A stretch of 64,000 nucleotides of DNA from the sequence record SRR20825010_2279; one strand, written 5' to 3'. The notes under the pieces are model-generated. The model did not search any database. It saw only the letters and a program-made list of their open reading frames with translations, and had not been told where the DNA came from. Below, one piece after another: positions 21,048-62,314 of the stretch. The translations under genes and the position numbers were made by a program. Within the stretch, counting starts at the first letter, position 1; every line of letters begins with the position of its first letter.

Positions 21048-21059
21048 TGAGAAAAATCA
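21048..21059. promoter_or_regulatory. Crp/Fnr-type palindrome TGAG-AAAA-ATCA (one mismatch) for the ABC exporter operon
   Basis: TATGA...TCATA arms; minus-strand TTATTTTG at 21024-21017, 23 bp away. Confidence 0.6.
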
Positions 21060-21370
21060 TATAGGCTTCTATCCCAAAAGTATTCTTTACCGTTCATCCA
21101 AGAATATAGCAAACGATATATAATTATTGAATAGCACATTGCCCTACGTGGGTGTCCCGGCTTGGCCCCATCACTCCGTAAAACCCATATAAGCGGGTTT
21201 CATCACTAAAATAACCGAATTAAATGTTGCGTTTGGAAATTTTAAAAAATCCATAACAAAAGGACACCCCTAAAGCGCTTTTTTTTACCAACGCTAAAGC
21301 AATGTCCTTTGACCAAATTTAGGATTTGATCCTACCCATTATTTAATAAGAGGTAGGGCCTATGCTAATC

Positions 21371-21886
21371 CTAAAGAAATTTTCCAGTTTCGTCCAGTTT
21401 AACCCGTAACATTTTATCCCCGTTCTCCAATTTAACCTTATAGGTTTTCTTTGCACCGTGAACATCGGAAAAGGAGACCAAATAAATATCTTTCGTAATA
21501 ACCCATCCTGGAAAACGATCCGCTATGCTCTCCCTTACTGAAGTTGGCAAATTTATATCCTTAAACTTTTCAGCAGTGCGCAGTAGCTTTCCATCGCCAT
21601 CATAAGCGGCAAGAATTTTGCCTTCGGGAATAAAAAAGGTAATATTATAAAGGTCATAATCGTCCTGATAATATTCTGAGCTTTTAATATCATAGGTCGC
21701 CACCTTTTCCTGCAATAGCTTCACCGGTACAGATGCCAACTCTCCAGTGTTGATATCATTGAGATATTTATAGTTGGTGGCGTAAACCGTTACCTCCGAT
21801 AATTCAACCGTAGGGATAATTTGAGAAAAGGATTGGGTGGTTAGTCCAATAGCTAATAAACCAAATAGAATTTTTTTCATGATCAT
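21371..21886 (-). CDS. Conserved secreted protein (possible PepSY/DUF2874-like C-terminal fold)
   Basis: Signal peptide; LPTSVRESIADRFPGWVI...YKVKLENG resembles PepSY-like/DUF2874 repeats; start could be 21880. Confidence 0.6.
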   Translation of the reverse strand: MIMKKILFGLLAIGLTTQSFSQIIPTVELSEVTVYATNYKYLNDINTGELASVPVKLLQEKVATYDIKSSEYYQDDYDLYNITFFIPEGKILAAYDGDGKLLRTAEKFKDINLPTSVRESIADRFPGWVITKDIYLVSFSDVHGAKKTYKVKLENGDKMLRVKLDETGKFL

Positions 21887-21968
21887 TAAGTTTAAATATT
21901 AATTAGTGTTAACATGGACTTCCGTTGTCCAATGGTAGCAAATTATCCCAACTTAAGGGCTTCTACAA

Positions 21969-21980
21969 TGACCTAAGTCA
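21969..21980. promoter_or_regulatory. Palindrome TGAC-CTAA-GTCA
   Basis: AATGAC/GTCATT perfect arms; minus-strand TAATTTGC at 21945-21938, 23 bp away. Confidence 0.75.
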
Positions 21981-22027
21981 TTATGCTACATTCAATTAAG
22001 AAATCCCACACCCCCAGAAGTCAGAAC

Positions 22028-22039
22028 TGACCAATGTCA
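22028..22039. promoter_or_regulatory. Palindrome TGAC-CAAT-GTCA
   Basis: TAGATTTG -7 element at 22063-22070, 23-bp spacer. Confidence 0.85.
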
Positions 22040-22153
22040 TATTTTACCATAAAAGAAGGAATTAGATTTGATGTTAATAAGGATTTATGCGAAATGCCTT
22101 TTAGGGAATTCCATAAACTGTCACAGAATAGTTTAAAGATTATAAAAAGGAAT

Positions 22154-22606
22154 ATGACAAATTTGACCACTAGCGAAAGTATTCGCTTACTAAAGGGCAA
22201 CTATACCGGACACTTGGGATATATATATCAGGATAAGCCTTATGTTCTCCCTATTACCTATTATTATGACAAGGATGATCATTCCCTGATAAGTTATTCG
22301 GCAGATGGCCACAAAATAGATGCCATGCGCCAGAATACAGCGGTGACCTTATTGGTCGAGGAAGTAAAATCATCCAACAATTGGCAATCGGTTATGGCCC
22401 ATGGCACCTATGAAGAACTTCAAGGAACCGATGCCAAATTTAAGTTGCATCAATTTACAGAGGGGGTAAAGGGTCTTATCCTTGCCAAAGAGCATCGGGA
22501 AACTGAATTTATAAGTGAATTTTCAAGCAAATTGTACTCCCGCGGAATTCCGACGGTATATCGCATCAAAATATTAGAGATTACTGGAAAAAGGAAAGAA
22601 ACCTAG
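22154..22606 (+). CDS. Pyridoxamine 5'-phosphate oxidase-like (split-barrel flavin-binding) protein
   Basis: GHLG...PYVLPITY, GHKIDAMRQN, WQSVMAHG; start moved from 22034 to 22154 because the promoter lies inside the longer ORF. Confidence 0.85.
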   Translation: MTNLTTSESIRLLKGNYTGHLGYIYQDKPYVLPITYYYDKDDHSLISYSADGHKIDAMRQNTAVTLLVEEVKSSNNWQSVMAHGTYEELQGTDAKFKLHQFTEGVKGLILAKEHRETEFISEFSSKLYSRGIPTVYRIKILEITGKRKET

Positions 22607-22706
22607 CATAATCCCCCCAGGTTAGTTCCCCCTATTTTCCAGCTATTAGCAATTAGCCTTACTGCTCTATAATGCTAATTTAAATAACCCAAATAATGTA
22701 TTGGAG

Positions 22707-25115
22707 ATGGAAAACTATATAAGGCAATTTAATGAAATAGATATAAACGATGTTCCCGAAGTAGGAGGAAAAAATGCCTCTTTGGGCGAAATGTACCAGA
22801 AACTTACCTCAAAAGGAATTCAGGTTCCGGACGGATTTGCCACTACTTCGGACGCCTACTGGCTCTTCCTGAAAGAAGCGCAATTAAAAGAATCCATATT
22901 CGCCGAGATTTCCAAATTGGATAATAAGGATTTTTCCAATTTACGGGAAGTTGGGAGTGCTATAAGAACAAGTATAGCCAAAGCGGATTTTCCGCAAGCT
23001 ATCAAGTCTTCCCTTGAACACGGATATAATACACTGGTAAAAAAATACGGTTCCCAAATTTCCTTGGCGGTCCGCAGCAGTGCCACGGCAGAGGACCTTC
23101 CCAATGCCAGTTTTGCAGGGCAACAGGAAACCTATCTCAATGTAAAGGGTTTTGATGAACTGATAGCTGCCTGTCATAAATGTTATGCCTCCTTATTCAC
23201 CGATAGGGCCATAAAATACCGCGAAGACAATCATTTTGACCAGACCAAGGTAGCGCTATCCATAGGCGTTCAGTTAATGGTACGCTCGGACCTGGCTAGT
23301 TCCGGAGTAAATTTCACCTTGGATCCGGACACTGGTTTTGATAAGGTGGTTCTTGTTACCAGCACTTGGGGCCTAGGTGAAAATATAGTTCAGGGCAGTG
23401 TTAATCCGGACGAATACTTCGTTTATAAACCTAGTCTTAAAAATAGTATTCGCCAACCCATTATTTCAAGAAAATTGGGCAGCAAGGAAAAAACCATGAT
23501 TTACGATACTTCTGGCAGCGGTACCCTTAACCTGGACACCACAATAGAAAAACAGGAAAAATTTGTACTTACCGACGCCGAGGTGAAAAAACTTGCCGAA
23601 TGGTCTATAATTATTGAGGAACATTATGGACGTCCCATGGATATAGAATGGGCAAAGGACGGTTTGACCAATGAATTGTTTATAGTCCAGGCCAGACCGG
23701 AGACGGTGCAAAGTGCAAAAAAGGATAAACTCAAAATCAGTACCTATACCTTGCTGGAAAAAGGCAAGGAAATTACAAGGGGAATGGGTCTGGGCAACAA
23801 AATATCTGCAGGGAAGGCACGTATTATACATAGTCCCCTAGAATCCGATAAGCTACAGCATGGAGAAATACTCATCACGGAAAAGACCGATCCCGATTGG
23901 GATCCCATCCTTAAAAAAGCTGCCGGCATCATTACGGACCAAGGGGGGCGCACAAGTCATGCCGCCATAGTTGCTCGTGAGGTAGGAGCTGCAGCAATTG
24001 TTGGCACCCTTAATGCTACAAAAACAATAAAGGATGGCCAGGATATCACCATTTCATGTGCAGATGGGGATACTGGAGTAGTTTACGATGGAATACTGAA
24101 ATGGGACGAAAAAACAGTGGATATTAAATCACTTAAAAAACCCGCAACCCAACCCATGCTTATTTTGGCAGATCCAGAGCAAGCCTTCAAACTATCATTT
24201 TATCCCACTGCCGGCGTTGGTCTTATGCGATTGGAATTTGTCATCAATAATTCCATCCAAATCCATCCGATGGCCTTAAAGCATTTTGACACCCTAAAGG
24301 ACCCCACTGTAAAGGAAACTATTGAAAAACTCACCCACCACTACCCTGACAAGGCCAATTATTTTGTGCATAAACTGGCAGAGGGCATTGCCACCATTGC
24401 AGCCGCCTTTTATCCCAAAGATGTTATTGTGCGTACAAGCGATTTTAAATCCAATGAATATGCCAATTTAATAGGCGGTAAGGAATTTGAACCATTGGAG
24501 TCCAACCCTATGATCGGTTTTAGAGGAGCATCACGCTACTATCATCCCAAATATCAGGAGGCCTTTGAATTGGAGTGCAAGGCCATGAAAATGGTCAGGG
24601 AGGACATGGGTTTTAATAATGTTAAGATAATGATTCCCTTCTGTCGTACCCTTACCGAAGCTGAAAGAGTGGTTGACCTTATGGCAGATTACGGATTGAA
24701 AAGGGGTGCGAATGGCCTACAGCTCTATATGATGACCGAAATTCCCAACAACGTAATGCTGGCCGAAGAGTTCGCACATTTTTTTGATGGCTTCTCTATC
24801 GGCTCTAACGACCTTACCCAATTGACCTTGGGCGTGGATCGCGATTCAGAGCTCTTAAGCGACATTTTTAACGCCAATGATCCTGGACTAAAAAAAATGA
24901 TCGCCATGGTCATTGATTCCGCCCACAAAACGAATACAAAAATTGGACTCTGCGGACAGGCTCCAAGTGATTATCCCGAGTTTGCACAGTTTCTTGTAGA
25001 AAAAGGAATCAATTCCATCTCCTTTAATCCGGATGCGCTCATTGAAGGAATCAAGAATATAAATATGGCAGAAAATCATAAGGTAAGTTTTGGAATGGCG
25101 GAAAGTAGTAATTGA
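22707..25115 (+). CDS. ppsA: Phosphoenolpyruvate synthase (pyruvate, water dikinase)
   Basis: VGGKNASLGEM, AVRSSATAEDLP, GGRTSHAAI phospho-His motif, FSIGSNDLTQ. Confidence 0.95.
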   Translation: MENYIRQFNEIDINDVPEVGGKNASLGEMYQKLTSKGIQVPDGFATTSDAYWLFLKEAQLKESIFAEISKLDNKDFSNLREVGSAIRTSIAKADFPQAIKSSLEHGYNTLVKKYGSQISLAVRSSATAEDLPNASFAGQQETYLNVKGFDELIAACHKCYASLFTDRAIKYREDNHFDQTKVALSIGVQLMVRSDLASSGVNFTLDPDTGFDKVVLVTSTWGLGENIVQGSVNPDEYFVYKPSLKNSIRQPIISRKLGSKEKTMIYDTSGSGTLNLDTTIEKQEKFVLTDAEVKKLAEWSIIIEEHYGRPMDIEWAKDGLTNELFIVQARPETVQSAKKDKLKISTYTLLEKGKEITRGMGLGNKISAGKARIIHSPLESDKLQHGEILITEKTDPDWDPILKKAAGIITDQGGRTSHAAIVAREVGAAAIVGTLNATKTIKDGQDITISCADGDTGVVYDGILKWDEKTVDIKSLKKPATQPMLILADPEQAFKLSFYPTAGVGLMRLEFVINNSIQIHPMALKHFDTLKDPTVKETIEKLTHHYPDKANYFVHKLAEGIATIAAAFYPKDVIVRTSDFKSNEYANLIGGKEFEPLESNPMIGFRGASRYYHPKYQEAFELECKAMKMVREDMGFNNVKIMIPFCRTLTEAERVVDLMADYGLKRGANGLQLYMMTEIPNNVMLAEEFAHFFDGFSIGSNDLTQLTLGVDRDSELLSDIFNANDPGLKKMIAMVIDSAHKTNTKIGLCGQAPSDYPEFAQFLVEKGINSISFNPDALIEGIKNINMAENHKVSFGMAESSN

Positions 25116-25236
25116 CATCCAAAAGGTAATTGGGCCCAATATATTTACTATTCATTGCCTTTGTCTGTGGAAACAAAAGATTCGCCAATTTTTGTTTCAC
25201 TATAAATACAATAAGGGAACTACCCTGTTGGATTGA

Positions 25237-25248
25237 TGATTTATATCA
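25237..25248. promoter_or_regulatory. Palindrome TGAT-TTAT-ATCA upstream of pfkB-glk
   Basis: ATGAT/ATCAT arms; TTCCTTTG at 25272, 23-bp spacer. Confidence 0.7.
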
Positions 25249-25430
25249 TTTTTCATCACCTTCGTAAATACTTCCTTTGTTATTACAATTGGGATACCCT
25301 AATGATTACCATAAACCAATCTATAATAGTAGGTATTCCCCAATGAAATTGGAAACCTAAGCTTAGAACGTCTAATTTTTGCCCAAATCTAATTCTGTTG
25401 GGCTCTGAACAATCATAAATTATAAATAAG

Positions 25431-28613: not shown

Positions 28614-28767
28614 CTTGTTATTTCTTGTAATTTATCAGCAAAACTTACAAGCCACCCACTGAACCAATTGGAATAGTTACCGTGATACTTGCCTATTTTA
28701 AGAAGTTAAATGGTTAATGGAATAAAATTGTTTCGTTAAAATTAGAACCTAATATTGTATCCATAAA

Positions 28768-28779
28768 TGACTTCTATCA
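28768..28779. promoter_or_regulatory. Palindrome TGAC-TTCT-ATCA serving divergent usp and pta-ackA
   Basis: Minus TAATTTTA at 28744-28737 and plus GAACTTCG at 28803, both 23 bp away. Confidence 0.75.
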
Positions 28780-28837
28780 TATATGGTAATATTTCTATGC
28801 CCGAACTTCGCAACTCGAAAAAGAATATTAGAAATTC

Positions 28838-30931: not shown

Positions 30932-30955
30932 TTTTAAAACAATAAATCCAAAAAT

Positions 30956-32251: not shown

Positions 32252-32461
32252 CTACTCCTTTTTTGCCTTGCAAGTTTTTATTCCAAAAGGAAGGTACAAC
32301 GGACAAAAGCCCATAAAACTGGTCAGGAAAAAGACAATGGCCAAAACCACTAGTACAATGCCCAACATCCCGGAAATAGTACCATTATAATAAAGAGCGA
32401 TCAATGCCGCCGCTATCACAAAACGCAAGGTTCTGTCCAAATTACCCATATTTTTCTTCAT
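32252..32461 (-). CDS. DUF2892 / YgaP-like small membrane protein
   Basis: MKKNMGNLDRTLR...GFCPLYLPFGIKTC family signature. Confidence 0.85.
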   Translation of the reverse strand: MKKNMGNLDRTLRFVIAAALIALYYNGTISGMLGIVLVVLAIVFFLTSFMGFCPLYLPFGIKTCKAKKE

Positions 32462-32666
32462 GATTATAAATTTAAGTTATAGAACTTTTTAAAACCTTAC
32501 AACGAACCTGTAATTCCGTTGTTAAGGCATACTTTTTTTTATATAAACATCAGACTGTCAAAAGCATCCTTTGGCGCTTCATTCCCTTAGATCCAGGTAA
32601 CTTTCCGATTTTTTCCAATTTCTAACTTGACAAATCAAAGTAAATGGATATGTATTCCTATTCAAA

Positions 32667-32678
32667 TGATATATGTCA
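32667..32678. promoter_or_regulatory. Palindrome TGAT-ATAT-GTCA serving divergent genes
   Basis: Plus TAATTTTG at 32702 and minus TTACTTTG at 32643-32636, both 23 bp away. Confidence 0.85.
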
Positions 32679-32746
32679 TTTCTGGGACCAATACATTTAA
32701 ATAATTTTGTAGTACGCCAAGTTTATAATACTTAAAGCAAATTATC

Positions 32747-37328: not shown

Positions 37329-37393
37329 ACCTAATATTATTATATTTTAAATTGATATACTCCAAAAATGCCAACTTCCTTCATCTAAAAAAA

Positions 37394-37405
37394 TGATTTA
37401 AATCA
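37394..37405. promoter_or_regulatory. Perfect palindrome TGAT-TTAA-ATCA upstream of the sigma-like operon
   Basis: ATGATTTAAATCAT; minus CATTTTTG at 37370-37363, 23 bp away. Confidence 0.8.
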
Positions 37406-37958: not shown

Positions 37959-38036
37959 TTGACACAAAAATGATGAAATGGCTAGGTTGGTATATTCGTC
38001 CATCCCTAATTTAAGAACTAATGACTGCAAATGATA

Positions 38037-38048
38037 TGATTTATATCA
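38037..38048. promoter_or_regulatory. Palindrome TGAT-TTAT-ATCA serving divergent genes
   Basis: Plus TATTTTTG at 38072 and minus TAAATTAG at 38013-38006, both 23 bp away. Confidence 0.85.
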
Positions 38049-38122
38049 TTTACAAAGCATTTTAATAGACTTATTTTTGAGTATCATTTTAAAATATGTA
38101 ATAATCAAAAAAATCAGTAATC

Positions 38123-39060: not shown

Positions 39061-40128
39061 TTAAAAATCCGCTACCTCCCTAAGCCCCTTTTCATTTAAA
39101 ATAATGATCCTTCTTCCATGATCGGTGGCGATCAGGCCTTCGTTCTTAAAATCCGTTAAGGTACGGATAGCGGTTTCCGTTGCGGTACCGATCATACCGG
39201 CGAAATCCTCCCTCGGTATTCCTATTCCCCCATTGGGTCTGTCCTGTATAACTTGTTTATCATAAAGTTCCAACAGGGCCTTTGCAGCCCTTTGCCTTAC
39301 CGAGGCAAATGCCATATCCACCAATTGTTCCTGCAGATGCATAAGATTATTCGATATCATTCCAATAAATTTCTGTGAAACTACAGAGTTGCCATAAATT
39401 AATTTGGTAAAATCCTTCCTAGGTATGGCGCACATTTCGGCATCTTCCAACACAGTAGCATTTTCAACATAAACTTTATTGGAATTCAATAGGGAAAGTT
39501 GCCCAACAAAATCCCCAGGGCCAAATATTCCTGTTACAAATTCCTTTCCGGATTCCGTGCTTTTATAGGTCTTAACACTGCCTTGTTCAATGAAATACAA
39601 AGAATTTGCGTTATCACCTTCCCAGAAAATTATATCCTTTTTATTGTATTTCTTTAGGGGGTAATCCTTGGAAAGACTCTTCATATCAACGTATTGGGAG
39701 GCCTCGTCCAGGAATTTACTTAGGCCTTCCATGTTTTTGGCAATCTCCTTTTTAAGAAAGTCGCTCTTTCGTAATCGGGAGGAAATAGCTTCCAGCAATT
39801 CCTTTTCCTCAAATGGCTTGGTGAGATAATCGTCCGCCCCCAAATTCATTCCCAGTCTCACCTCTGCCCTATCGGTTTTTGCCGTCAAAAATATAAAGGG
39901 TATGCTAGCGGTTGTACTGTTTTTGCCCAATATTTCCAATACCCCATATCCGTCCAGTTCAGGCATCATTATATCGCATATGATTACGTCTGGCCTAAAT
40001 TTTTCCGCAAGTTCTACCCCAATTTTTCCATTCTCGGCGGTAGCTACCTCGTAATTGGCCAATTCCAATATGTCTGCTGTATTTTCCCTTACATCCTTGT
40101 TATCTTCAATTAATAGAATTCTTTTCAT
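39061..40128 (-). CDS. Response regulator: receiver + cNMP-like domain + Crp/Fnr HTH
   Basis: ILLIEDN, DIMMPELDG (phospho-Asp), KPF; C-terminal REDFAGMIGTATETAIRTL HTH; start 40128 or 40134. Confidence 0.92.
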   Translation of the reverse strand: MKRILLIEDNKDVRENTADILELANYEVATAENGKIGVELAEKFRPDVIICDIMMPELDGYGVLEILGKNSTTASIPFIFLTAKTDRAEVRLGMNLGADDYLTKPFEEKELLEAISSRLRKSDFLKKEIAKNMEGLSKFLDEASQYVDMKSLSKDYPLKKYNKKDIIFWEGDNANSLYFIEQGSVKTYKSTESGKEFVTGIFGPGDFVGQLSLLNSNKVYVENATVLEDAEMCAIPRKDFTKLIYGNSVVSQKFIGMISNNLMHLQEQLVDMAFASVRQRAAKALLELYDKQVIQDRPNGGIGIPREDFAGMIGTATETAIRTLTDFKNEGLIATDHGRRIIILNEKGLREVADF

Positions 40129-42859
40129 ATTCATTTATATTTATGGGCAGTTTTAGACTGAAGGTGCTTCCTTTCCCCAATTTACTTTTAAACCCTACAG
40201 TTCCGCTTAGAAGCCCCGTATACTGTTTTACTATATTAAGACCAAGTCCGGTCCCTTGGAAATTGGTGGCATTTTCCGCACGGTAAAATCGCTCGAACAA
40301 CTTTTTCTGATTTGCCTTAGGGATGCCGATTCCTTGATCCTTAACATGGATAAATAGCTCTTTATCATTAGCATCAACTTCCAATCCAATAATTTGTCCT
40401 TCCATGGAATACTTAATGGCATTAGAAAGTAGATTAATAATAATATGGTTCAACAATTTGGGGTCAAGACAAACCGATATAGAAGGTTGGGAATACTTTA
40501 AAACAATGTCCTGACCCTCTTTTTTGTTTGGTTCCATCTCATCTACCAACATTTTTAAGAATTGTATCAACTCAAAAAACTGTGGTTTCACAGATACCTT
40601 GCCCTCTTCCAACTTGCTCAAGGATAGAAAATCGTTAAGAATAACAACAAGATCCCTCACATTGGTCCTAATCCTGGAGACATGCTTCATCCTCCTATCC
40701 TCCTTACCTGGCTCATTCTGTTTTCCTATAAGTATAGCCGAAGAAAGAATAGCACTCAAAGGTGTGCGGAATTCATGGGAGGCTATCGTAATAAAACGGG
40801 ATTTTAACTCATTTAGTTCCTTTTCCACCATTATTGTCCTTTCAAGTTTATGCTGTACCTCTTTCTGCTCGGTAACATTGTTATAAACGAACAAGGCCCA
40901 CATTATTTTCTTTTCATCAGAATAGAGCGGTGTAGAATTAACAGCATAGCATTGGTCGTGAAAATCTACTTCAAATGAAATATTGCCCCCCCTTAGAGTT
41001 TTTCGAATATCCGATTTTATTTTTTTGATCTGTATTTTTGAAAAAACAGGGATGTCATCTATTGGAATTCCTTCAAAATCCGACTTTTTAATGTTGATTC
41101 GGTCCATTTCCTCCCCTTCCACATAAACCAATTCATAATCGGAATTAAATACCATGATGACCCCATTGGGAAAATTATGTGCAATAGCAGTAAACAAGGC
41201 CCTACTGAGATTTGCCTTCCTTTGAGCTCTTTGGGTCTCGATCATTTGATCTTCCAGATTTAAATTGGTCGATACCAGTTTTTCTACCGTAGTTCGAACT
41301 TCCCTAGTCCGTTCTTCAACTTTGTCTTCCAATACATGGGCATATTCCTCCAGTTTTCTCTTGGCATCCTGAATTTCGGTAACATCGTTGAGAACCCCAA
41401 TGAAATGCGTCAGTTTCTGATCTTGATCATATAGGGGCGTAATAAACAAATCGTTCCAAAAAAGAATGCCGTCCTTACTGTAATTCCGAATCAATACTCG
41501 GCAGGAACTACCGTGGTCAATGGCTTTGGACATAAAGGCAATTTCGGGCTGGTTACGATCGCCGTTCTGCAAGAATCTGCAATTTCTCCCCAGAACTTCA
41601 TCGGCCCCATATCCGGTAATTTGGGTAAAGGCCTTATTAGAATATATAATGGGAAGATCGGGATGCTGGGCATCCACAATAATAATACCGTTGCCTACGG
41701 CTTCCAAGGCCCTGTTTCTAATTTTTAAGGTTTCTTGGGTCAACTTGTTTTCCGTAATATCCAGTCCAGAACTTACGACAGCTATAATTTCATTGTTTCC
41801 ATTCCTCAAGGCAGCATTGCTCCATTGAATTAGGTGCTCTTGCCCTCCTTTGGCAACAATAGGGTTTTCATGAAAGTTGGGCAGATCTAATTTATCTTCA
41901 AAAATAGATTCAAAAAGTTGGATCAATTGGTTTTGCTTCCTTTTAGGTATAAATTCCTTAAACCAGTTTTTATTCAAAATAGCATCTTGTTCAATTCCCA
42001 ATATTTCACTGGTCCTTTTATTGACAAGTTGAACGGTATGGTCCTTATTGATCACTAAAAACATGGAAGGCGAAGTGTCCATATATTGGCGGAGCAATTT
42101 TTTTTCCATCACCAGGGCGTGTTCTGCAGTCTTCAACTCTGTATAATCCTGCATAAAGCCTTCCCGTCTATAAGGAATATCATTTTCATCCATAATACAG
42201 GAACCGTGCTCCCATATCCATTTTATTTCCTTTTTTGAGGTAATTATCCTATACCGAAGCTGGTACGATCCTTTTTCCATTACGGCCCTGTCAAGTTCAG
42301 ACTCAACCTGTGGCAAATCCTCTGGGTGAATTAAATTTCCCCAATTAAGTTTAGAGTTACCATAAAACTGATCAGGGGCATATCCACTAATAGTTCTGGA
42401 AGCCTCGCTAATGAATTCCATAGACCATGGCTTGGCAATACTACAACTGTATACAATTCCGGCAACATTGGTGACCAAAGTTCTGAACTTCCTGTCGCTT
42501 TCAAACACCGGGTTATCCGCTCGCTTGCAGTAGATCACTTTTAGGCTTTGGCCTTTTAGTACGGTTGGTACGATCCTAATATCGATAGGAAATTTAACCC
42601 CAGTCTTTTCCCGACCATAAAACTGATTGGGCCCTACTACAATCTCATTCATTTCCGCAGCAAGAGCATTGATCTTCCAGTCAGGAATAATCAAATGGAT
42701 ATCCTGCTGTAGCAACTCACCCTCAACATAACCGAACATTTGTTCTGCCGACTTGTTGGCGGTGAGAATAAATCCATTTTGGTCTACCACAATAAGTCCG
42801 GCTAAGGAAGATTCAAAAATGGATTGAAAAAGATCGCTATTTGTTATTTTTTCATTCAT
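40106..42859 (-). CDS. Multi-PAS sensor histidine kinase containing a LOV domain
   Basis: Several PAS repeats; GRNCRFLQ at 41590-41567; ASHEFRTPL H-box; NLLSNAIKY, DQGIGIP, GTGLGL; start 42859 preferred to TTG at 42964. Confidence 0.92.
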   Translation of the reverse strand: MNEKITNSDLFQSIFESSLAGLIVVDQNGFILTANKSAEQMFGYVEGELLQQDIHLIIPDWKINALAAEMNEIVVGPNQFYGREKTGVKFPIDIRIVPTVLKGQSLKVIYCKRADNPVFESDRKFRTLVTNVAGIVYSCSIAKPWSMEFISEASRTISGYAPDQFYGNSKLNWGNLIHPEDLPQVESELDRAVMEKGSYQLRYRIITSKKEIKWIWEHGSCIMDENDIPYRREGFMQDYTELKTAEHALVMEKKLLRQYMDTSPSMFLVINKDHTVQLVNKRTSEILGIEQDAILNKNWFKEFIPKRKQNQLIQLFESIFEDKLDLPNFHENPIVAKGGQEHLIQWSNAALRNGNNEIIAVVSSGLDITENKLTQETLKIRNRALEAVGNGIIIVDAQHPDLPIIYSNKAFTQITGYGADEVLGRNCRFLQNGDRNQPEIAFMSKAIDHGSSCRVLIRNYSKDGILFWNDLFITPLYDQDQKLTHFIGVLNDVTEIQDAKRKLEEYAHVLEDKVEERTREVRTTVEKLVSTNLNLEDQMIETQRAQRKANLSRALFTAIAHNFPNGVIMVFNSDYELVYVEGEEMDRINIKKSDFEGIPIDDIPVFSKIQIKKIKSDIRKTLRGGNISFEVDFHDQCYAVNSTPLYSDEKKIMWALFVYNNVTEQKEVQHKLERTIMVEKELNELKSRFITIASHEFRTPLSAILSSAILIGKQNEPGKEDRRMKHVSRIRTNVRDLVVILNDFLSLSKLEEGKVSVKPQFFELIQFLKMLVDEMEPNKKEGQDIVLKYSQPSISVCLDPKLLNHIIINLLSNAIKYSMEGQIIGLEVDANDKELFIHVKDQGIGIPKANQKKLFERFYRAENATNFQGTGLGLNIVKQYTGLLSGTVGFKSKLGKGSTFSLKLPININEYEKNSIN

Positions 42860-43015
42860 TGCCCTTTTACTGATTTTCACTTTATGGTCTTGGCCGCACC
42901 AACAAGGACGGACCGCTAAGGAGTTTTGTTGAATACACACTATCCATGGAGGCCTGTATTCCAATAATTTAGTACTCAGTTACACAAATGTATTGTTCAC
43001 TATAGCCGAAAGAAA

Positions 43016-43027
43016 TGATATCCGTCA
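43016..43027. promoter_or_regulatory. Palindrome TGAT-ATCC-GTCA for the LOV kinase operon
   Basis: Minus TACATTTG at 42992-42985, 23 bp away. Confidence 0.85.
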
Positions 43028-43053: not shown

Positions 43054-43065
43054 TGATAACGGTCA
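43054..43065. promoter_or_regulatory. Palindrome TGAT-AACG-GTCA for the patatin gene
   Basis: TAATTTTG at 43089, 23-bp spacer. Confidence 0.85.
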
Positions 43066-43120
43066 TATGTGCATTTCTTTATATGGAATAATTTTGATTC
43101 AAATTCTAAATAAAGGGATT

Positions 43121-47477: not shown

Positions 47478-47546
47478 AATATTGTATTTTTAAGGGTTAT
47501 ATATTTATTATACTTTAAAAGTACTTCCAACCAGCTTGGCACAAAA

Positions 47547-47558
47547 TGATTTAGGTCA
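47547..47558. promoter_or_regulatory. Palindrome TGAT-TTAG-GTCA serving hsp20 and the divergent ATPase
   Basis: Minus TACTTTTA at 47523-47516 and plus TATTTTTA at 47582, both 23 bp away. Confidence 0.8.
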
Positions 47559-47697
47559 GTCACACAAAATTTCTTTACATTTATTTTTACCGTATCAAAT
47601 CACTGTAACAAAACTGCGCTAACCATATCCGAATTTGAATGAATGCGAAAGTTGGATTGTAATGTCTTGTTATACACATTTTAGTTAATTTAGACAT

Positions 47698-54819: not shown

Positions 54820-54864
54820 AAGTAATATTTTGCTGAAGATATTTCCACAGCACGACATTGACAA

Positions 54865-54876
54865 TGACAAATGTCA
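54865..54876. promoter_or_regulatory. Palindrome TGAC-AAAT-GTCA
   Basis: Minus TATCTTCA at 54841-54834, 23 bp away. Confidence 0.8.
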
Positions 54877-55566: not shown

Positions 55567-55569
55567 GTC

Positions 55570-56331: not shown

Positions 56332-56333
56332 TT

Positions 56334-56972: not shown

Positions 56973-57024
56973 GACTTTGAATTTTAGTTTCTTCTAAAAT
57001 AGTGCATCGCAATCCAGTACAAAA

Positions 57025-57036
57025 TGACCAATGTCA
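57025..57036. promoter_or_regulatory. Palindrome TGAC-CAAT-GTCA for the WG-SDR operon
   Basis: Minus TATTTTAG at 57001-56994, 23 bp away. Confidence 0.82.
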
Positions 57037-57164: not shown

Positions 57165-57176
57165 TGACCAATATCA
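57165..57176. promoter_or_regulatory. Palindrome TGAC-CAAT-ATCA for usp
   Basis: TATTTTTG at 57200, 23-bp spacer. Confidence 0.85.
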
Positions 57177-57354
57177 TTTTAAATAGTCCGGCTGCTTTAT
57201 ATTTTTGTTTAAGAATATTTTGGCATTCTAAAGAGACCTTGGCCCAATGCAACCAGAATTGACAATTTTGCAAGGGGACTATCTCACCACTTTAGGGAAT
57301 TGAAACGGCTGCCAAAGGTGGAACAAAGATGATTACAACCCAAAAAAACATACA

Positions 57355-58179
57355 ATGAAACATATATTGGTACCTGTTGATTTTTCCGAGCACTCGGCCT
57401 ATGCACTGGAAGCCGCTGCTGGTATAGCAAAACAGCAGAACGCAGATATTACCATAATACATATGCTGGGAATTTCCGAAGCAGTAATAGCCGAAGAGGA
57501 ATTATTGGAGTACGAAGAAGCCAAATACTTTATGGGGCTTGCAAAGAAAAAATTTAAGCCCTTTCTGGACAAACCTTATTTAAAGGGTATCACTATTCAT
57601 AAAATAGTGCAGAATTATAAGGTATTCAGTGAGCTCAACAATGTTGCCAAGGAACAAAATATAGATTTGATCGTAATGGGATCACATGGTAGTACCGGTT
57701 TCAACGAGATTTTTATTGGCTCCAATACCGAAAAGGTGGTACGTAATTCAGATGTCCCGGTTTTGGTTATAAAGGAGCAAAAATCAAACTTCACCATAAA
57801 GAATATCCTTTTCGCCTGTAGTTTTTCGGAGGACATGGTTATGGCCTATAAAAATGTTAAGCTTATGGCTCAAAAATTTTCGGCCAAATTAAAATTGGTA
57901 TACATTAATACTCCATATCAGGATTTTTTGAGTTCACAGGAAGCTGACGATCGCATGGCCAAATTCATGTCCAAGGCCGGGGATACCCAAGCTAAAGTTG
58001 AAATTTATAATGACCGTAGTGTGGAAAATGGGATACTTAATTTTAGTAAGACCGAAAAATTTGACCTTCTCGCACTTCCAACACATGGAAGAAAAGGCCT
58101 TTCTCATTTCTTATTGGGCAGTATTGGTGAAGATATCGCCAACCACGCAAGATTGCCGGTAATGACATTTAAGATCTGA
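57355..58179 (+). CDS. Universal stress protein
   Basis: ILVPVDFS, MGSHGSTGFNEIFIGSNTEKVVR, THGRKG...LGSI. Confidence 0.93.
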   Translation: MKHILVPVDFSEHSAYALEAAAGIAKQQNADITIIHMLGISEAVIAEEELLEYEEAKYFMGLAKKKFKPFLDKPYLKGITIHKIVQNYKVFSELNNVAKEQNIDLIVMGSHGSTGFNEIFIGSNTEKVVRNSDVPVLVIKEQKSNFTIKNILFACSFSEDMVMAYKNVKLMAQKFSAKLKLVYINTPYQDFLSSQEADDRMAKFMSKAGDTQAKVEIYNDRSVENGILNFSKTEKFDLLALPTHGRKGLSHFLLGSIGEDIANHARLPVMTFKI

Positions 58180-58212
58180 TCAATGATCGGAGTCCCAAAT
58201 AATACTAAAGGT

Positions 58213-58617
58213 TTATTCTTTTAGCAAAAGTTCCAATTTGCCCAGCATTACCAATTCTGCTTTATTTTTTCCTGAAAAACTATTGGAAATGGCGTTTGCG
58301 GTATCCAAAATAAGTACCTTGATAAACTTACTGAACATATTGCTATTATCTTTATAGAACTCCTTAAACTCATCGAAGCAAACTTCACTATCCTTATCTT
58401 TGTCCATGGCCCAATCGAATACCGATTCGATTTGAAAAGCGGCATCTGTTCCAAATTCATCTTCCAGCTCATCAACCTCCAACCAATATTTTCTAATAAA
58501 GGACCTTAACTTACTTACTTCCTTGGCATGTACGCGGGAATCTGCCATGGCAATGGCGTAGAATAATTTTCCCAGGTTTTCATACAGTTCCTTACCTATT
58601 TTCTTTGTATTTTCCAT
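58213..58617 (-). CDS. TerB-like protein
   Basis: LFYAIAMADSRVHAKE resembles the TerB AD-x-x-V-x-x-x-E motif. Confidence 0.55.
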   Translation of the reverse strand: MENTKKIGKELYENLGKLFYAIAMADSRVHAKEVSKLRSFIRKYWLEVDELEDEFGTDAAFQIESVFDWAMDKDKDSEVCFDEFKEFYKDNSNMFSKFIKVLILDTANAISNSFSGKNKAELVMLGKLELLLKE

Positions 58618-58673
58618 GTTTAGATTGTTATAGACAATGAGCTAAAATTAGCAAATAGCCCAAGTATTATATA

Positions 58674-58685
58674 TGACAATAATCA
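58674..58685. promoter_or_regulatory. Palindrome TGAC-AATA-ATCA between the terB-like gene and the heme-PAS kinase
   Basis: Minus TAATTTTA at 58650-58643 (23 bp); plus TATCTTTG at 58698-58705 (12 bp). Confidence 0.8.
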
Positions 58686-58709
58686 GTTTAAAAATTTTAT
58701 CTTTGGCTT

Positions 58710-60221
58710 ATGCAGGCCTTTCAAAAAAACAGTGAAATATTCAACCTTCTTTCGGAAGGGGTATCCGAAGGAATTATAGTTGTCAATACCCAACAGCTTA
58801 TAGTAGCCACCAATTCCTCGGCCGGGAGAATGTTTGGTTACAGTAAGGGAGAGCTCCTTGGAAAACCCCTGGACACCCTAATACCTAGAAGGTACCACGG
58901 GCATCACGGTCACCATGTGGAGGACTTTATTGATAAAAGTGAACGTCGGCAAATGGGCCGGGGCAGGGATTTACATGGGGTAAGAAAAAACGGGGAGGAA
59001 TTTCCTGTTGAGGCGGGTCTAAATCCGTTTAAGCTTTATGACGAAACCTATGTCATGGCCCTAGTAATTGATATTACCGAACGTAAGGTCAAAGAAAAAG
59101 AACTCAGCCATTGGGCAAGGATATTTGATGAATCCCTCAATGAAATCTATGTTTTCGACGCCATCTCAAAATATTTTGTGAACGTAAACAAAGAGGCCCA
59201 GCGAAATATGGGCTATAACCTGGAAGAATTTAAGACATTGAAGCCATTGGACATTAAGCCCCATATGGACTCCCCACAATTCCAATTGCTAATAGAACCC
59301 TTGCTTAACGGCTCAAGGGACAAGGTAAAGTTTGAAACCGACCATCAAAGAAAGGACGGGTCTATCTATCCCGTAGAAGTACATTTGCAACTATCTACAT
59401 TTGGTGAAAAAGATGTTATTGTAGCTATAATACTTGATATTACAGAGAGAAGGAATTATACCGAAAAGCTGGAAAAAAAGGTCCAAGAGCGTACCAAACA
59501 ACTTACGGAAGCTTTGGTCAAGGAGAAGGAATTGAACGAGCTAAAAACACGCTTCCTTTCCTTGGTTTCCCATGAATTTAAGACCCCTTTGAGCAGTATA
59601 CTTACCTCTATTACCTTATTGTCCAAGTATACCGAAAGTCACCAACAGGAAAAGAGGGATAAGCACGTTGAAACCATAAAGAACAAAGTACGCTATCTGG
59701 ATACTATTTTGACCGATTTTCTTTCGGTGGAGCGTTTGGATTCTGGAAAGGTAAATTACAAGTTAGAAACTTTCCCTTTAAGCAAAATTGTAAACGAGGT
59801 AGTCTATGGTGCCAACATGCTCCTTAAGGCGGGCCAAACCATTAAATATCCGGAGAATATCGATGATATTTTCATCAGATTTGACGAAAAAACCTTGGAA
59901 CTGGCCTTGTCCAACCTAATACATAATGCCATTAAATATTCCCCAGAAGATACAACTATAAGTCTAGCGGTGAGCAATGGTAAGGACACCGTACTAATAA
60001 ATGTGATCGATCGTGGAATTGGCATACCTGCACAGGACCAAAAACATATTTTTAATCGTTATTTTAGGGCAGAAAATGCATTGTTGAACCAAGGTACGGG
60101 TATTGGACTTAACATTGCGAAACAGCATTTGGAAAATCTTGGCGCCACTATTGAATTTACCAGTGAAGAAAACAAAGGATCTATATTTACTATAGTTATC
60201 CCGTTAGAAAACATAAATTGA
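58710..60221 (+). CDS. PAS-PAS sensor histidine kinase with FixL-like heme-PAS domain
   Basis: LIPRRYHGHH...MGRGR...RKNGEEFPVE; VSHEFKTPL H-box; NAIKY, DRGIGIP, GTGIGL. Confidence 0.9.
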   Translation: MQAFQKNSEIFNLLSEGVSEGIIVVNTQQLIVATNSSAGRMFGYSKGELLGKPLDTLIPRRYHGHHGHHVEDFIDKSERRQMGRGRDLHGVRKNGEEFPVEAGLNPFKLYDETYVMALVIDITERKVKEKELSHWARIFDESLNEIYVFDAISKYFVNVNKEAQRNMGYNLEEFKTLKPLDIKPHMDSPQFQLLIEPLLNGSRDKVKFETDHQRKDGSIYPVEVHLQLSTFGEKDVIVAIILDITERRNYTEKLEKKVQERTKQLTEALVKEKELNELKTRFLSLVSHEFKTPLSSILTSITLLSKYTESHQQEKRDKHVETIKNKVRYLDTILTDFLSVERLDSGKVNYKLETFPLSKIVNEVVYGANMLLKAGQTIKYPENIDDIFIRFDEKTLELALSNLIHNAIKYSPEDTTISLAVSNGKDTVLINVIDRGIGIPAQDQKHIFNRYFRAENALLNQGTGIGLNIAKQHLENLGATIEFTSEENKGSIFTIVIPLENIN

Positions 60222-60228
60222 AAGAGCA

Positions 60229-61281
60229 ATGAAGACAATTCTATTAATCGAGGACGATAGGGCCTTGCGTGAAAATACCGAAGAGCTTTTGGAGCTTTCA
60301 GGTTATTCCATGATTACGGCCCCAAACGGAAAAATTGGTATTCAAATGGCCAAGGAAAAATTGCCGGATATCATTGTCTGCGATATTATGATGCCAGAGG
60401 TGGATGGTTATGGCGTTCTAAAGGACTTGTCTTCAGACGAAAGCACCAAACATATTCCCTTTATATTCCTATCTGCCAAAACCGAACATAAAGAGATACG
60501 ACGTGGAATGGATCTGGGCGCCGATGATTACCTTACCAAGCCTTTTGAAGAGGAAGACCTCATAAACGCCATAGAAAGTAGATTGGCCAAAGTGGAACTA
60601 TTGGGGCGTATGGCAAAGGAAGGGACGCTGGATCCGGCCGTTTCGGAAGATCAGATACGCACCTTGAACGAGTTGAAGAATTTTTTTGACGACAATGGAG
60701 AACCCACTAGTTTTCCCCAAGGCAGTACCATCTACCAAGAAGGGACCTATTCTCATAAAATATACCTTATCCTAAAAGGGGTCGTAAAATGCCATACTAT
60801 GGACGAGGACGGAAAAGAATTGATCACTTCCCTGTTTAGGGCAGATGACTTTTTGGGATTTACCTCCTTTATAGACAATATTCCTTATCAGGAATCGGCA
60901 ACCGCCATCGAGGATGTGGAACTGGCCGGGATATCCAAGGAAAATTTAAAGCAGGTGTTGGAAAAGAACCACAATATCTCCTTGGAACTCATGGAACTGC
61001 TTACTGGAAATATTAAGGACATAAAACAGCAATTGTTGCAAATGGCCTATAGTTCCGTGCGAAAGAAAACCGCCCAAACCTTGTTGCAGTTCGCAGAAAT
61101 AATGAACAAAAAAACCGAGGATCCCATTAAAATTTCCCGAAATGATCTGGCCAGTGTAGCCGGTATTGCTACCGAAAGCCTTATCCGCACGCTGTCCGGA
61201 TTCAAAAAGGAAGGACTAATAGACATTGAAGGCAGAAATATCCGTATCAAGGAATTAAAGGCCCTGCAATACATCAATTAA
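60229..61281 (+). CDS. Response regulator: receiver + cNMP-like domain + Crp/Fnr HTH
   Basis: ILLIEDD, DIMMPEVDG, KPF; RNDLASVAGIATESLIRTL HTH. Confidence 0.92.
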   Translation: MKTILLIEDDRALRENTEELLELSGYSMITAPNGKIGIQMAKEKLPDIIVCDIMMPEVDGYGVLKDLSSDESTKHIPFIFLSAKTEHKEIRRGMDLGADDYLTKPFEEEDLINAIESRLAKVELLGRMAKEGTLDPAVSEDQIRTLNELKNFFDDNGEPTSFPQGSTIYQEGTYSHKIYLILKGVVKCHTMDEDGKELITSLFRADDFLGFTSFIDNIPYQESATAIEDVELAGISKENLKQVLEKNHNISLELMELLTGNIKDIKQQLLQMAYSSVRKKTAQTLLQFAEIMNKKTEDPIKISRNDLASVAGIATESLIRTLSGFKKEGLIDIEGRNIRIKELKALQYIN

Positions 61282-61314
61282 GGATATTCTTAACACTATA
61301 TTTTTACTGGAAAC

Positions 61315-61326
61315 TGACCAATGTCA
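61315..61326. promoter_or_regulatory. Palindrome TGAC-CAAT-GTCA
   Basis: TAGTTTTG at 61350, 23-bp spacer; 19-mer AACTGACCAATGTCATATT identical to 22025-22043. Confidence 0.87.
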
Positions 61327-61382
61327 TATTACAGTTATGGCCATAAGTTTAGTTTTGTATTGATGTAGCTATTTAATTTTGA

Positions 61383-62219
61383 ATGAAGAATATACTGTTC
61401 CCCACCGATTTTTCCGAAAATTCATGGTACGCAATTGAATATGCCTTAAAGCTGTTCAAAGATGCTCCCTGTAATTTTTATGTACTCCATGTTGATGCTT
61501 TAAGTAGATCCGGTGTGGACAGCAATTCCTTTGTTATGCCATTCAAAAGTATTAATGTGGCCCTTAAGGATAATCTAGAGGATACCTTTGCCCGTATTAA
61601 GACCATTACCACCAACAAGGAACATAATTTTATCGCCCTCCATGAATATGGAAATCTCATAGATATTGTTCGAAAGACCATATCGGACAAAAAGATAAAT
61701 CTAATTGTCATGGGGACCAAAGGGGCTTCGGGCTTAAAAGAAACCATTTTGGGCAGCAATACCGGGAATGTCATGACCAAAGTACCCTGTAATCTATTGG
61801 TGATTCCAGAAAAAGCCGTGCAGTGCATCCCTCAAGAAATTGCCTTTCCTACCGATTACAATAATTTCTATTCCCATTCTATTTTGGAGGCGATTTCAAA
61901 AATGCTCCGTCTCACCAAAGCCAACCTAAGTGTTGTTAATGTCTCGAAGCCCAGTGTACAATTAAATGAAGCCCAAAATCAGAATATGGTCTATTTACAG
62001 GACTATCTGCTGGAACTTTATGAAAAATCGCATAGTATCCACAACCTAAAACATGAAAAGGCCAAAAGTGCCATTGAGCAATTTGTTGTCAGTGAGAAAA
62101 TAGATATGGTGATCATGGTGGCCAAGAACCTAAATTTTCTGCAACAGCTGCTGTTCGACACCACCATTAAAAAAATTAGTTTTCAGACGAGGATTCCTTT
62201 ACTTGTCCTCCACGAATAA
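61383..62219 (+). CDS. Universal stress protein
   Basis: ILFPTDFS, MGTKGASGLKETILGSNT. Confidence 0.93.
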   Translation: MKNILFPTDFSENSWYAIEYALKLFKDAPCNFYVLHVDALSRSGVDSNSFVMPFKSINVALKDNLEDTFARIKTITTNKEHNFIALHEYGNLIDIVRKTISDKKINLIVMGTKGASGLKETILGSNTGNVMTKVPCNLLVIPEKAVQCIPQEIAFPTDYNNFYSHSILEAISKMLRLTKANLSVVNVSKPSVQLNEAQNQNMVYLQDYLLELYEKSHSIHNLKHEKAKSAIEQFVVSEKIDMVIMVAKNLNFLQQLLFDTTIKKISFQTRIPLLVLHE

Positions 62220-62249
62220 ACGCACCCCCATGGGTTGATATAGGGCTAC

Positions 62250-62261
62250 TGATAAATGTCA
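62250..62261. promoter_or_regulatory. Palindrome TGAT-AAAT-GTCA
   Basis: TAACTTTG at 62285, 23-bp spacer. Confidence 0.87.
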
Positions 62262-62314
62262 TAGGTTTTATATGTCGCTACCAATAACTTTGATAGGTAT
62301 ACAAAAGAAAACCT

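Follow-up and report, generated by a model that had tools for sequence, protein, structure and literature searches.

Escherichia coli FNR and Pseudomonas Anr recognize a dyad with a TGA-N6-TCA core near -41.5 at class II promoters, and -41.5 is the class II position of both CRP and FNR. In FixLJ-FixK systems a haem-PAS kinase signals low oxygen through a receiver, and the Crp/Fnr-type protein FixK, which has no Fe-S cluster, binds a TTGAT-N4-ATCAA-like box; boxes of this type stand at cbb3 oxidase genes, at hemN and at stress genes, and FixK2 is negatively autoregulated. In the DosR/DosS/DosT system of Mycobacterium tuberculosis, haem kinases switch on many universal stress proteins (USPs) and Hsp20 (alpha-crystallin) under hypoxia. 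Oxygen cascades of the Fix kind occur as FixL-FixJ-FixK and hFixL-FxkR-FixK in rhizobia and Caulobacter (PMC9104804, PMC7888657; excerpts). The closest described system to the one reported here is the lxa locus of Burkholderia cenocepacia: according to the sections of that paper covered here, it is a 50-gene cluster induced by low oxygen with 17 intergenic TGA-N6-TCA motifs, whose similarity to the Anr/Fnr motif is stated, and it is required for anoxic survival (PMC3721108, Sass et al. 2013). The same sections list six USPs, an alpha-crystallin, acetate kinase, phosphate acetyltransferase, a cation ATPase and a ribokinase among its products, together with a low-oxygen-induced metal-dependent RNase, CRP/Anr-type regulators and two two-component systems (PMC3721108). 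Here we describe a comparable island in a 64,000-nt stretch of DNA from sequence record SRR20825010_2279 (the window), whose promoters carry a TGA-N6-TCA palindrome (the box) at a fixed distance from the -7 box of the Bacteroidota. With a probability of roughly 0.7, we propose that this box is a Crp/Fnr-type operator at which regulators that fuse a receiver to a Crp-type module, together with an Fnr-like protein, would activate a class-II-type low-oxygen persistence regulon.

The box was searched as TGAYNNNNRTCA, i.e. TGAY-N4-RTCA, within the fuller palindrome (A/C)TGAY-N4-RTCA(T). The window contains 18 exact matches against 3.50 +/- 1.85 expected from 100 dinucleotide shuffles, none of which attained 18 and the richest of which held 10. 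In a window that is 90.8% coding, 16 of the 18 lie outside the hand-picked open reading frames (ORFs), and all 16 are confined to positions 21969-62261. The palindrome also emerged from a blind ranking of 4-nt inverted repeats with gaps of 0-10 in the intergenic DNA of the island, in which ATGA-N6-TCAT came out on top with 10 occurrences. A preliminary description of the same DNA had listed 17 boxes, of which 16 were recovered as exact matches; the 17th, TGAGAAAAATCA at 21048, has one mismatch (G for Y). The two intragenic exact boxes, at 8137 and at 41418 within the gene of the LOV kinase HK1 discussed below, were absent from that list. Its view that the box is missing upstream of susC, the sulfatase, GH63, xth and upp was borne out: no box of up to one mismatch occurs in any intergenic region left of 21048, where the genes are SusC/SusD-like, sulfatase and GH63, and none precedes the Exo_endo_phos gene (xth, 34960) or the UPRTase gene (upp, 50237), both of which were confirmed by Pfam. 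A search of Rfam at gathering thresholds returned nothing over 21000-64000.

The second property of the boxes is their rigid spacing to the octamer TAnnTTTG (TANNTTTG). In the 32 orientations of the 16 exact boxes, this octamer stands at a gap of 23 bp exactly in 8 cases and within one mismatch in 17, against at most 1 exact octamer and at most 2 within one mismatch at each of the other gaps from 5 to 44; the background per position is 0.0006 for exact octamers and 0.0098 within one mismatch. All eight exact octamers named in the preliminary description (22063, 32702, 38072, 42992, 43089, 57200, 61350 and 62285) were found again, as were its 21 promoter instances, with 8 exact, 10 one-mismatch and 3 two-mismatch octamers. 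Five boxes are used two-way, each facing two divergent promoters, as expected for a symmetric dimer. The 23-nt spacers share a mean pairwise identity of 33%, compared with 29% expected from composition; they are unrelated, and therefore the sites are not copies of one duplicated promoter, which rules out duplication as their origin. Of 78 sites, 64 have T at the proximal flank of the box, with a T-rich stretch beyond it at the expected -33 element; distally, the flanking base is A or C.

Counted from the first base of the octamer, the centre of the box is 29.5 bp further upstream. In Flavobacterium psychrophilum, the sigma-A box TAnnTTTG occupies -12 to -5 relative to mapped transcription starts, as given in the portion of the study covered here (PMC9723704). 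Together with the 23-bp gap, this published position puts the box at -47 to -36 with its centre at -41.5 relative to the predicted starts, as had been proposed. The best reading of these promoters is thus that they are of class II type, with the dyad predicted near -41.5.

To count the architecture genome-wide, we defined a composite site as box plus 23 bp plus TAnnTTTG and used the reversed pattern as the control, in the nearest genome (G001, 5.6 Mb) and in samples of the family and the phylum. The scan for box-N23-octamer that had been suggested earlier gave 19 composite sites and 0 control matches in the nearest genome. Eight of them are in the island; the 11 elsewhere include sites ahead of genes for a HemN-type oxidase, a cytochrome c, a USP, a flavoprotein and the Fnr-like protein. 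The proposed limit of the regulon to ~45 kb does not hold, given these 11 of 19 sites outside the island and the fact that the island itself passes the right end of the window. Across the Flavobacteriaceae, the composite site was found in 110 of 121 genomes (120 genera), with 966 sites against ~20 for the control, which was counted by hand; the promoter architecture is family-wide and not private to the island. When the gap was freed to 12-36 in five genomes, 69 of 113 matches kept to gap 23, 7 had gap 24 and the remaining 37 were scattered over 23 other gaps, with a control total of 29. In the phylum sample, 61 of 151 genomes had composite sites, few per genome and largely within families of the same class.

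Which proteins could read this box? The island encodes two kinase-regulator pairs, and in both regulators a receiver is followed by a cNMP-binding-like domain and a Crp-type helix-turn-helix (HTH). RR1 (39061..40134, minus strand) has the recognition helix TATETAIR and RR2 (60229..61281, plus strand) the helix IATESLIR. Matches above the curated cut-offs to PF00027 (cNMP-binding; 6.9e-24 for RR1, 4e-18 for RR2) and PF13545 (Crp-type HTH; 3.9e-15 and 1.5e-12) assign both to the Crp/Fnr superfamily. Their receivers (PF00072; 1.3e-28 and 9.6e-29) read out with the DD/ED pair, the Asp in CDIMMPE, the Thr and the Lys (TKPF), and a kinase gene adjoins each, which identifies RR1 and RR2 as two-component response regulators with predicted phosphotransfer. 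They are not FNR proper, having a receiver in place of the Cys-rich N-terminus; RR1 has central Cys only and RR2 none. A candidate of that kind is encoded outside the window's region: the Fnr-like protein of the nearest genome has 228 amino acids and begins MGRCENC. Four Cys are kept in 21 of 21 of its orthologues across genera, which fits a metal or Fe-S sensor, and one of them lies at what we take to be the position of FNR Cys122.

The HTH core ...G.ATE..IR....FK..GLI is invariant in RR1, RR2 and the Fnr-like protein, and in the nearest genome the motif ATE[ST]xIR occurs in just 3 of 11 HTH_Crp_2 matches, namely these three. Our data are hence in line with the earlier proposal of one Crp/Fnr-type specificity across the island, as the box is an FNR/FixK-like TGA-N6-TCA and the helices of RR1 and RR2 match each other and that of the Fnr-like protein. 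At least three regulators, rather than one, carry this specificity. Homologues of the regulators were found at 88-97% identity in Arenibacter, then in Maribacter, Pricia, Kriegella, Aquimarina and many other Flavobacteriaceae. In four family genomes (G118, G117, G095, G043) the Fnr-like and receiver-Crp genes are 1-6 kb apart; in the nearest genome the distance exceeds 1.6 Mb.

Around the RR2 genes, box and regulator are closely linked. The 80 RR2-orthologous loci (995 kb) contain 405 boxes where shuffles give 81, and 159 composite sites where the control gives 0. This corresponds to a composite density of ~160/Mb, compared with 2-3/Mb genome-wide, about 70-fold the family average. In 65 of the 80 loci a composite site follows within 200 bp downstream of the RR2 stop, as at 61315 in the window (RR2, box, next gene), and in 77 of 80 an HK2-like kinase stands directly upstream of RR2, two of the three exceptions being at a contig end.

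The sensor domains of the two kinases differ. For the first PAS domain of HK2 (58710..60221, plus strand), the closest solved structures are FixL (3.9e-12), DosP and BjFixL. It aligns a His and an Arg with residues that we take to be the proximal haem ligand and the FG-loop Arg of FixL, and the His is present in all 14 orthologues printed. HK2 is therefore most similar to FixL-like haem-PAS kinases, and haem binding is predicted. HK1 (40106..42859, minus strand, likely ATG 42859) is a multi-PAS kinase fused to HisKA/HATPase. Its LOV domain (41366-41725, minus strand) carries the motif GRNCRFLQ with the adduct-forming Cys and matches LOV kinase structures at 6e-34, with phototropin, YtvA and aureochrome also matched; the usual signalling Gln of FIGVQ is replaced by Leu (FIGVLNDVT). 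By sequence it is a bona fide LOV domain and a predicted photosensor. The HK1-RR1 operon lies behind box 43016 with a perfect octamer at 42992 at the activating spacing, which suggests a cascade in which the oxygen branch would induce the LOV branch.

These sensors bear on the nature of the signal. The operator and its regulators could be as proposed and the signal nevertheless be something other than oxygen; if cells responded, for instance, to blue light, to their redox or energy state or to entering stationary phase, the regulon would be one of general stress or dormancy. Both the LOV domain and the several other PAS domains of HK1 fit such a view, as do USPs, Hsp20, HPF and YtxH, which are markers of general stress and dormancy. 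We nonetheless regard it as unlikely, because FixL and DosP, both haem oxygen sensors, are the nearest matches of the HK2 sensor, whose proximal His is conserved, and because hemN, ccoS/ccoI, cytochrome c, PFL, NirK-like and NapC genes form the core of the targets in the family. Moreover, a LOV-bearing kinase stands next to an RR1-type gene in just 4 of 7 loci, a rough figure from a strict motif search whose regular expression missed the regulator ORF in 2 of the 7; LOV is therefore not a constant partner of RR1-type regulators. The gene classes ccoS and ccoI carry the composite site in the genomes sampled, and in F. psychrophilum they are up ~30-fold after one hour of oxygen deprivation (log fold change 4.76 for ccoS and 4.94 for ccoI, in supplementary file 6 of PMC9723704, a study covered in part). 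Hypoxia, the condition under which the preliminary description would map transcription starts, is likely for the FixL-like branch only; the second kinase carries a LOV domain.

The distribution of the regulators speaks to a different alternative, in which the four-Cys Fnr-like protein is the only or main reader of the box and the fusions are mere members of the regulon or bind another sequence. Receiver-Crp fusions, called at E <= 1e-40, were found in 57 of 121 family genomes, mostly in the common RR2 form; the RR1 type (at least 60% identity) occurs in 9 genomes only, 7 of them with a second, RR2-like match. Fnr-like orthologues, called at a best E <= 4e-60, were found in 75 of 121. Genomes with both types (n=32) average 13.3 composite sites (3.38/Mb), those with the Fnr-like protein only (n=43) 7.2 (2.06/Mb), those with a fusion only (n=25) 8.4 (2.56/Mb) and those with neither (n=21, 10 of them without any site) 0.9 (0.40/Mb); since the cut-offs are our own, the genomes are related and the genomes with neither type are small, this contrast, although large, is indicative rather than a formal test.

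That 43 genomes without a fusion still average 7.2 sites is what an Fnr-only reader would give, and so is the composite site that the Fnr-like gene itself carries, close to hemN, which has one as well. The Cys conservation, as for an Fe-S oxygen sensor, and the position of the HK1-RR1 operon behind an activating box point the same way. Against it stand the 25 genomes that have a fusion and no Fnr orthologue at the cut-off, whose sites include hemN and ccoS. In three such fusion-only genomes, the 29 ORFs behind a box include HemN (3), CcoS (2), cytochrome c (2), USP (5) and HPF (2). The 26 box-led ORFs of two Fnr-only genomes include HemN (2), CcoS (2), a CcoI-type ATPase and cytochrome c (2), and further HPF, PFL, Pta, NirK-like and NapC; no USP was among these 26. 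Each of the five genomes has one protein above the Pfam cut-off with ATE[ST]xIR, which is the fusion regulator in the former and the CxxC Fnr-like protein in the latter, and the boxes are alike in both groups with respect to Y/R use in the half-sites, N4 composition and flanks. With the density of sites around RR2 genes and the site directly after RR2 in most loci, these results make an exclusive or dominant role of the Fnr-like protein quite unlikely.

That the palindrome is no transcription factor site at all, and instead an extended promoter element for RNA polymerase or an alternative sigma factor, or a relic copied along with USP paralogues, is highly improbable: the rigid spacing, the many targets among paralogous tandem-USP genes and the T-rich stretch at the would-be -33 element would suit it, but the dyad is perfect, as for a dimeric HTH protein, and is used in both directions at five sites, the spacers are unrelated, the targets are functionally diverse, and the composite site is nearly absent from genomes lacking both regulator types, though these belong to the same family with the same TAnnTTTG consensus.

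For a Crp/Fnr-type operator read by fusions and the Fnr-like protein together, the most economical mechanism would be the following. A dimer bound at -41.5 would contact the polymerase, standing in for a good -33 element, and recruit it to a Bacteroidota sigma-A promoter as at a class II FNR/CRP site. RR2 would be phosphorylated by the adjoining FixL-like haem-PAS kinase HK2, most likely at low oxygen; RR1, its paralogue in the island with the LOV multi-PAS kinase, would add a blue-light or redox input; and the four-Cys Fnr-like protein, encoded elsewhere in an Arenibacter-like genome, would be the third reader of the box. The probable inputs are hence oxygen, via haem-PAS and the Cys-rich Fnr-like protein, and light, via LOV. 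Together, the three regulators would switch on ~20 island promoters and thereby USPs, Hsp20, two P-type ATPases, Pta-AckA, PEP synthase, glucokinase, the PfkB kinase, alpha-glucan phosphorylase, the M50/CBS protease and the patatin-like lipase, as well as FNR targets such as hemN outside the island. The likely output is a programme of low-oxygen persistence and fermentation.

Several observations weigh against this interpretation. The -7 box deviates at two positions in three of the 21 promoter instances, and box 21048 is itself imperfect. Other Crp-family paralogues have comparable E-x-x-(I/S)-R helices and could recognize the box as well. The nearest genome encodes such proteins with TPESLSR/SRETLSR, and two of the three fusion-only genomes (G007, locus L205; G062, locus L213) encode proteins of ~200 amino acids with RVETVIR, which may be additional readers of the box; the gene of one of the latter is ~1.3 kb away from a composite site that precedes an OsmC gene. 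Sequence cannot assign the island promoters among RR1, RR2 and the Fnr-like protein, and the LOV sensor of HK1 means that some of the island genes may respond to light or redox instead of oxygen.

Finally, the promoter of HK2-RR2 itself is off the activating spacing. In 46 of 76 orthologous loci, and in 50 if one mismatch is allowed, TAnnTTTG ends 4 nt ahead of the HK2 start codon, which predicts a leaderless HK2-RR2 mRNA. The distance from box to this octamer is 11-12 nt in 26 loci and 24-26 nt in 14, and never 23 (loci L078-L157). In the window, box 58674 stands 12 nt upstream of the HK2 -7 box (TATCTTTG, exact, 58698..58705, plus strand), which ends 4 nt before ATG 58710. For the same box in the divergent direction, the -7 box is at gap 23 in 56 of 63 cases. 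The predicted centre near -30.5 is a repressing position, so the HK2-RR2 pair probably limits its own synthesis and at the same time activates its neighbour; the position points to auto-repression or, failing that, to an operon that is not itself under class-II activation.

We now turn to the individual promoters of the island, from left to right. The weak box TGAGAAAAATCA (21048..21059) has a -7-like octamer TTATTTTG at 21017-21024 on the minus strand, ahead of a HlyD/MacB/ABC operon (17968-20999, minus), and its membership in the regulon is uncertain. Box TGACCTAAGTCA (21969..21980) faces, with the two-mismatch octamer TAATTTGC (21938-21945, minus), an uncharacterized 171-aa ORF (21371-21886, minus). 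Box TGACCAATGTCA with the exact -7 box TAGATTTG (22063-22070) spans 22028..22070 on the plus strand and precedes genes for a PNPOx-like protein (likely ATG 22094, end 22606, plus) and a PEP synthase/PpsA-like protein (22701-25115, plus). Box TGATTTATATCA with octamer TTCCTTTG (one mismatch; 25237..25279, plus) leads to a PfkB-family kinase (25431-26378) and a glucokinase (26575-27651).

The two-way box TGACTTCTATCA (28768-28779; with both octamers 28737..28810) serves a tandem USP (27753-28613) on the minus side through octamer TAATTTTA, with one mismatch, and Pta (28838-30931) and AckA (30956-32146) on the plus side through GAACTTCG, with two. A further two-way box, TGATATATGTCA (32667-32678; 32636..32709), has the exact octamer TAATTTTG on its plus side, ahead of an uncharacterized 128-aa ORF (32747-33133) and an ABC1/UbiB-like kinase (33139-34821), and TTACTTTG, with one mismatch, on its minus side, ahead of a 69-aa membrane ORF (32252-32461). 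By eye, this two-helix ORF (minus strand) resembles a YgaP-like/DUF2892 protein that stands behind a composite site in G062. Box TGATTTAAATCA (37394-37405) and octamer CATTTTTG (one mismatch) span 37363..37405 on the minus strand and precede ORFs 36561-37328, 36138-36533 and 35721-36086. The first of these (255 aa, minus) has a weak Sigma70_r4_2 match (1e-5), just below the curated cut-off, and possibly represents a sigma-like factor that the regulon controls. The two-way box TGATTTATATCA (38037-38048; 38006..38079) is linked by the exact octamer TATTTTTG to a YtxH-like gene (38123-38452) and ORF 38459-38803 on the plus side, and by TAAATTAG, with one mismatch, to ORF 37467-38030 on the minus side.

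Box TGATATCCGTCA (43016-43027), with the exact -7 box TACATTTG (42985-42992), spans 42985..43027 on the minus strand and is that of the HK1-RR1 operon. Close by on the plus strand, box TGATAACGGTCA and an exact TAATTTTG (43089-43096; together 43054..43096) precede a patatin-like phospholipase gene (likely ATG 43121, end 43960). The two-way box TGATTTAGGTCA (47547-47558; 47516..47589) faces Hsp20 (47013-47477) and a P-type ATPase (44230-46905) on the minus side (TACTTTTA, one mismatch) and another P-type ATPase (47698-50208) on the plus side (TATTTTTA, one mismatch). Box TGACAAATGTCA (54865-54876) with the two-mismatch octamer TATCTTCA (54834..54876, minus) leads to an M50 peptidase with CBS (53731 to ~54819) and probably also serves the alpha-glucan phosphorylase gene (50991-53555).

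In the right part of the island, box TGACCAATGTCA (57025-57036) with octamer TATTTTAG (one mismatch; 56994..57036, minus) precedes genes for a WG-repeat protein (56334-56972), an SDR protein (55570-56367) and ORF 55051-55566, and box TGACCAATATCA with an exact TATTTTTG (57165..57207, plus) a tandem USP (57355-58179). Box TGACAATAATCA (58674-58685), described above for HK2, has its minus octamer TAATTTTA (one mismatch; 58643..58685) ahead of ORF 58213-58617. Behind RR2, box TGACCAATGTCA with the exact TAGTTTTG (61315..61357, plus) precedes a tandem USP (61383-62219), and box TGATAAATGTCA with the exact TAACTTTG (62250..62292, plus) two more (62315-63160, and 63178 to beyond 63999). RNA contigs of four runs overlie several of the USP genes and 56381-56967; these contigs carry no start, strand or level.

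By Pfam, the products encoded between 21 and 64 kb are five tandem USPs, Hsp20, two P-type cation ATPases and YtxH, further PEP synthase, the PNPOx-like protein, the PfkB kinase, glucokinase, Pta, AckA, alpha-glucan phosphorylase and SDR, to which the ABC1 kinase, the patatin-like lipase and the M50 protease with CBS are added. In the nearest genome the island runs on beyond the right end of the window with eight further tandem-USP ORFs and three further boxes, each with a near-perfect -7 box at gap 23. After the extra USPs (G001:C1:2156100-2176000) follow an MscS-like channel, a protein with ATP-cone and Mrr_cat domains and a beta-CASP metallo-RNase. Concerning glycogen, GH63 and a debranching enzyme are encoded left of the island (11811-16431) without boxes; the alpha-glucan phosphorylase is of the DUF3417 type and lies, like glucokinase and PfkB, inside the island. 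This hints at stored glucan as a fuel for Pta-AckA fermentation in anoxia.

Algal and particulate organic matter is broken down to a large extent by Flavobacteriaceae, which inhabit particles and sediments with rapidly falling oxygen. To our knowledge, anoxia sensing and survival of these "strict aerobes" are largely unstudied. The rule of operator plus promoter (box, 23 bp, -7 box) can predict members of the regulon in most genomes of the family, and it comes with three candidate regulators whose sensor domains are identified: haem-PAS, LOV and a four-Cys motif. The rigid spacing also offers a handle on the contact between an activator and the unusual Bacteroidota sigma-A holoenzyme. More tentatively, at odds a little short of even, marine Flavobacteriaceae may use a one-protein FixJ plus FixK with a FixL-like kinase, which would read the operator of the Fe-S Fnr-like protein and replace that protein at hemN and cbb3 in 25 of 121 genomes (about a fifth of the genera), and in Arenibacter and a few genera close to it a duplicated pair with the LOV kinase may make this operator responsive to blue light as well. 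If true, a single promoter architecture of class-II type with rigid spacing would integrate light with oxygen, the latter sensed by two chemistries, and such an architecture would be new for Bacteroidota -33/-7 promoters.

As the preliminary description had supposed, the literature yielded no description of the box, the regulon or receiver-Crp fusions in Flavobacteriaceae, with supplementary files covered in part. In the sections of PMC8510549 covered here, Crp/Fnr homologues of Flavobacteriales are treated only as MalR-like, and "Fnr" and "Crp" are absent from the main text of PMC9723704 and, in the supplementary rows covered, occur only as gene annotations. The notable new feature is accordingly the receiver-Crp fusion regulator, a signalling architecture for which we found no description; an FNR/FixK-type regulon and an lxa-like island are known kinds, and the gene list parallels the persistence programmes of Burkholderia lxa and mycobacterial DosR.

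As far as the covered part of the lxa report allows a comparison, both are clusters of ~50 genes with the palindrome at intergenic points (17 in lxa, 16-17 here), and both have further copies of the motif at loci elsewhere in the genome, which are co-regulated in lxa. Common to them are USPs, alpha-crystallin/Hsp20, AckA, Pta, a cation ATPase and a ribokinase/PfkB-type kinase, as well as CRP/Anr-type regulators and two two-component systems, and the metal-dependent RNase of lxa is matched in the continuation of the island in the nearest genome, beyond the window. On the other hand, the host of lxa is a betaproteobacterium, whose promoters are of the sigma-70 -35/-10 kind; CRP/Anr proteins and two-component systems are the candidate regulators there, as separate entities instead of receiver-Crp fusions; and lxa is backed by transcriptome and deletion evidence, whereas the island is known here from sequence alone.

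The DosR regulon has a remarkably parallel gene list, including a PfkB kinase, a P-type ATPase, an M50/CBS protease and a PNPOx-like protein, but its regulator is of the NarL/LuxR type with another operator, and DosS/DosT sense by GAF and not by PAS. HK1 resembles the LOV histidine kinases of Brucella, Caulobacter and Pseudomonas in its GRNCRFLQ LOV domain fused to HisKA/HATPase, and differs from them in its receiver-Crp partner, the Leu in place of the I-beta Gln and several extra PAS domains. With FNR and Anr, the system shares the TGA-N6-TCA dyad, here at a predicted position near -41.5, the Glu and Arg at the same relative positions of the helix, and hemN, high-affinity oxidase, fermentation genes and USPs as targets. 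Unlike FNR, the island regulators have a receiver in place of the N-terminal Cys cluster, and the Ser of E--SR is replaced by Ile (E--IR).

As in FixL-FixJ-FixK, a haem-PAS kinase (predicted here), a receiver and a Crp/Fnr module are combined with a box at cbb3, hemN and stress genes, and the HK2-RR2 promoter looks built for repression, like that of the negatively autoregulated FixK2. In contrast to Fix, the outer flank of the box is A/C (ATGAY) and not the T of TTGAT, and the promoters are of the Bacteroidota -33/-7 type. Above all, the receiver in the role of FixJ and the Crp/Fnr module in the role of FixK are here one polypeptide, so that the intermediate transcriptional step is absent. By analogy, the regulon is best read as a flavobacterial counterpart of lxa and of FixLJ-FixK in which FixJ and FixK appear merged.

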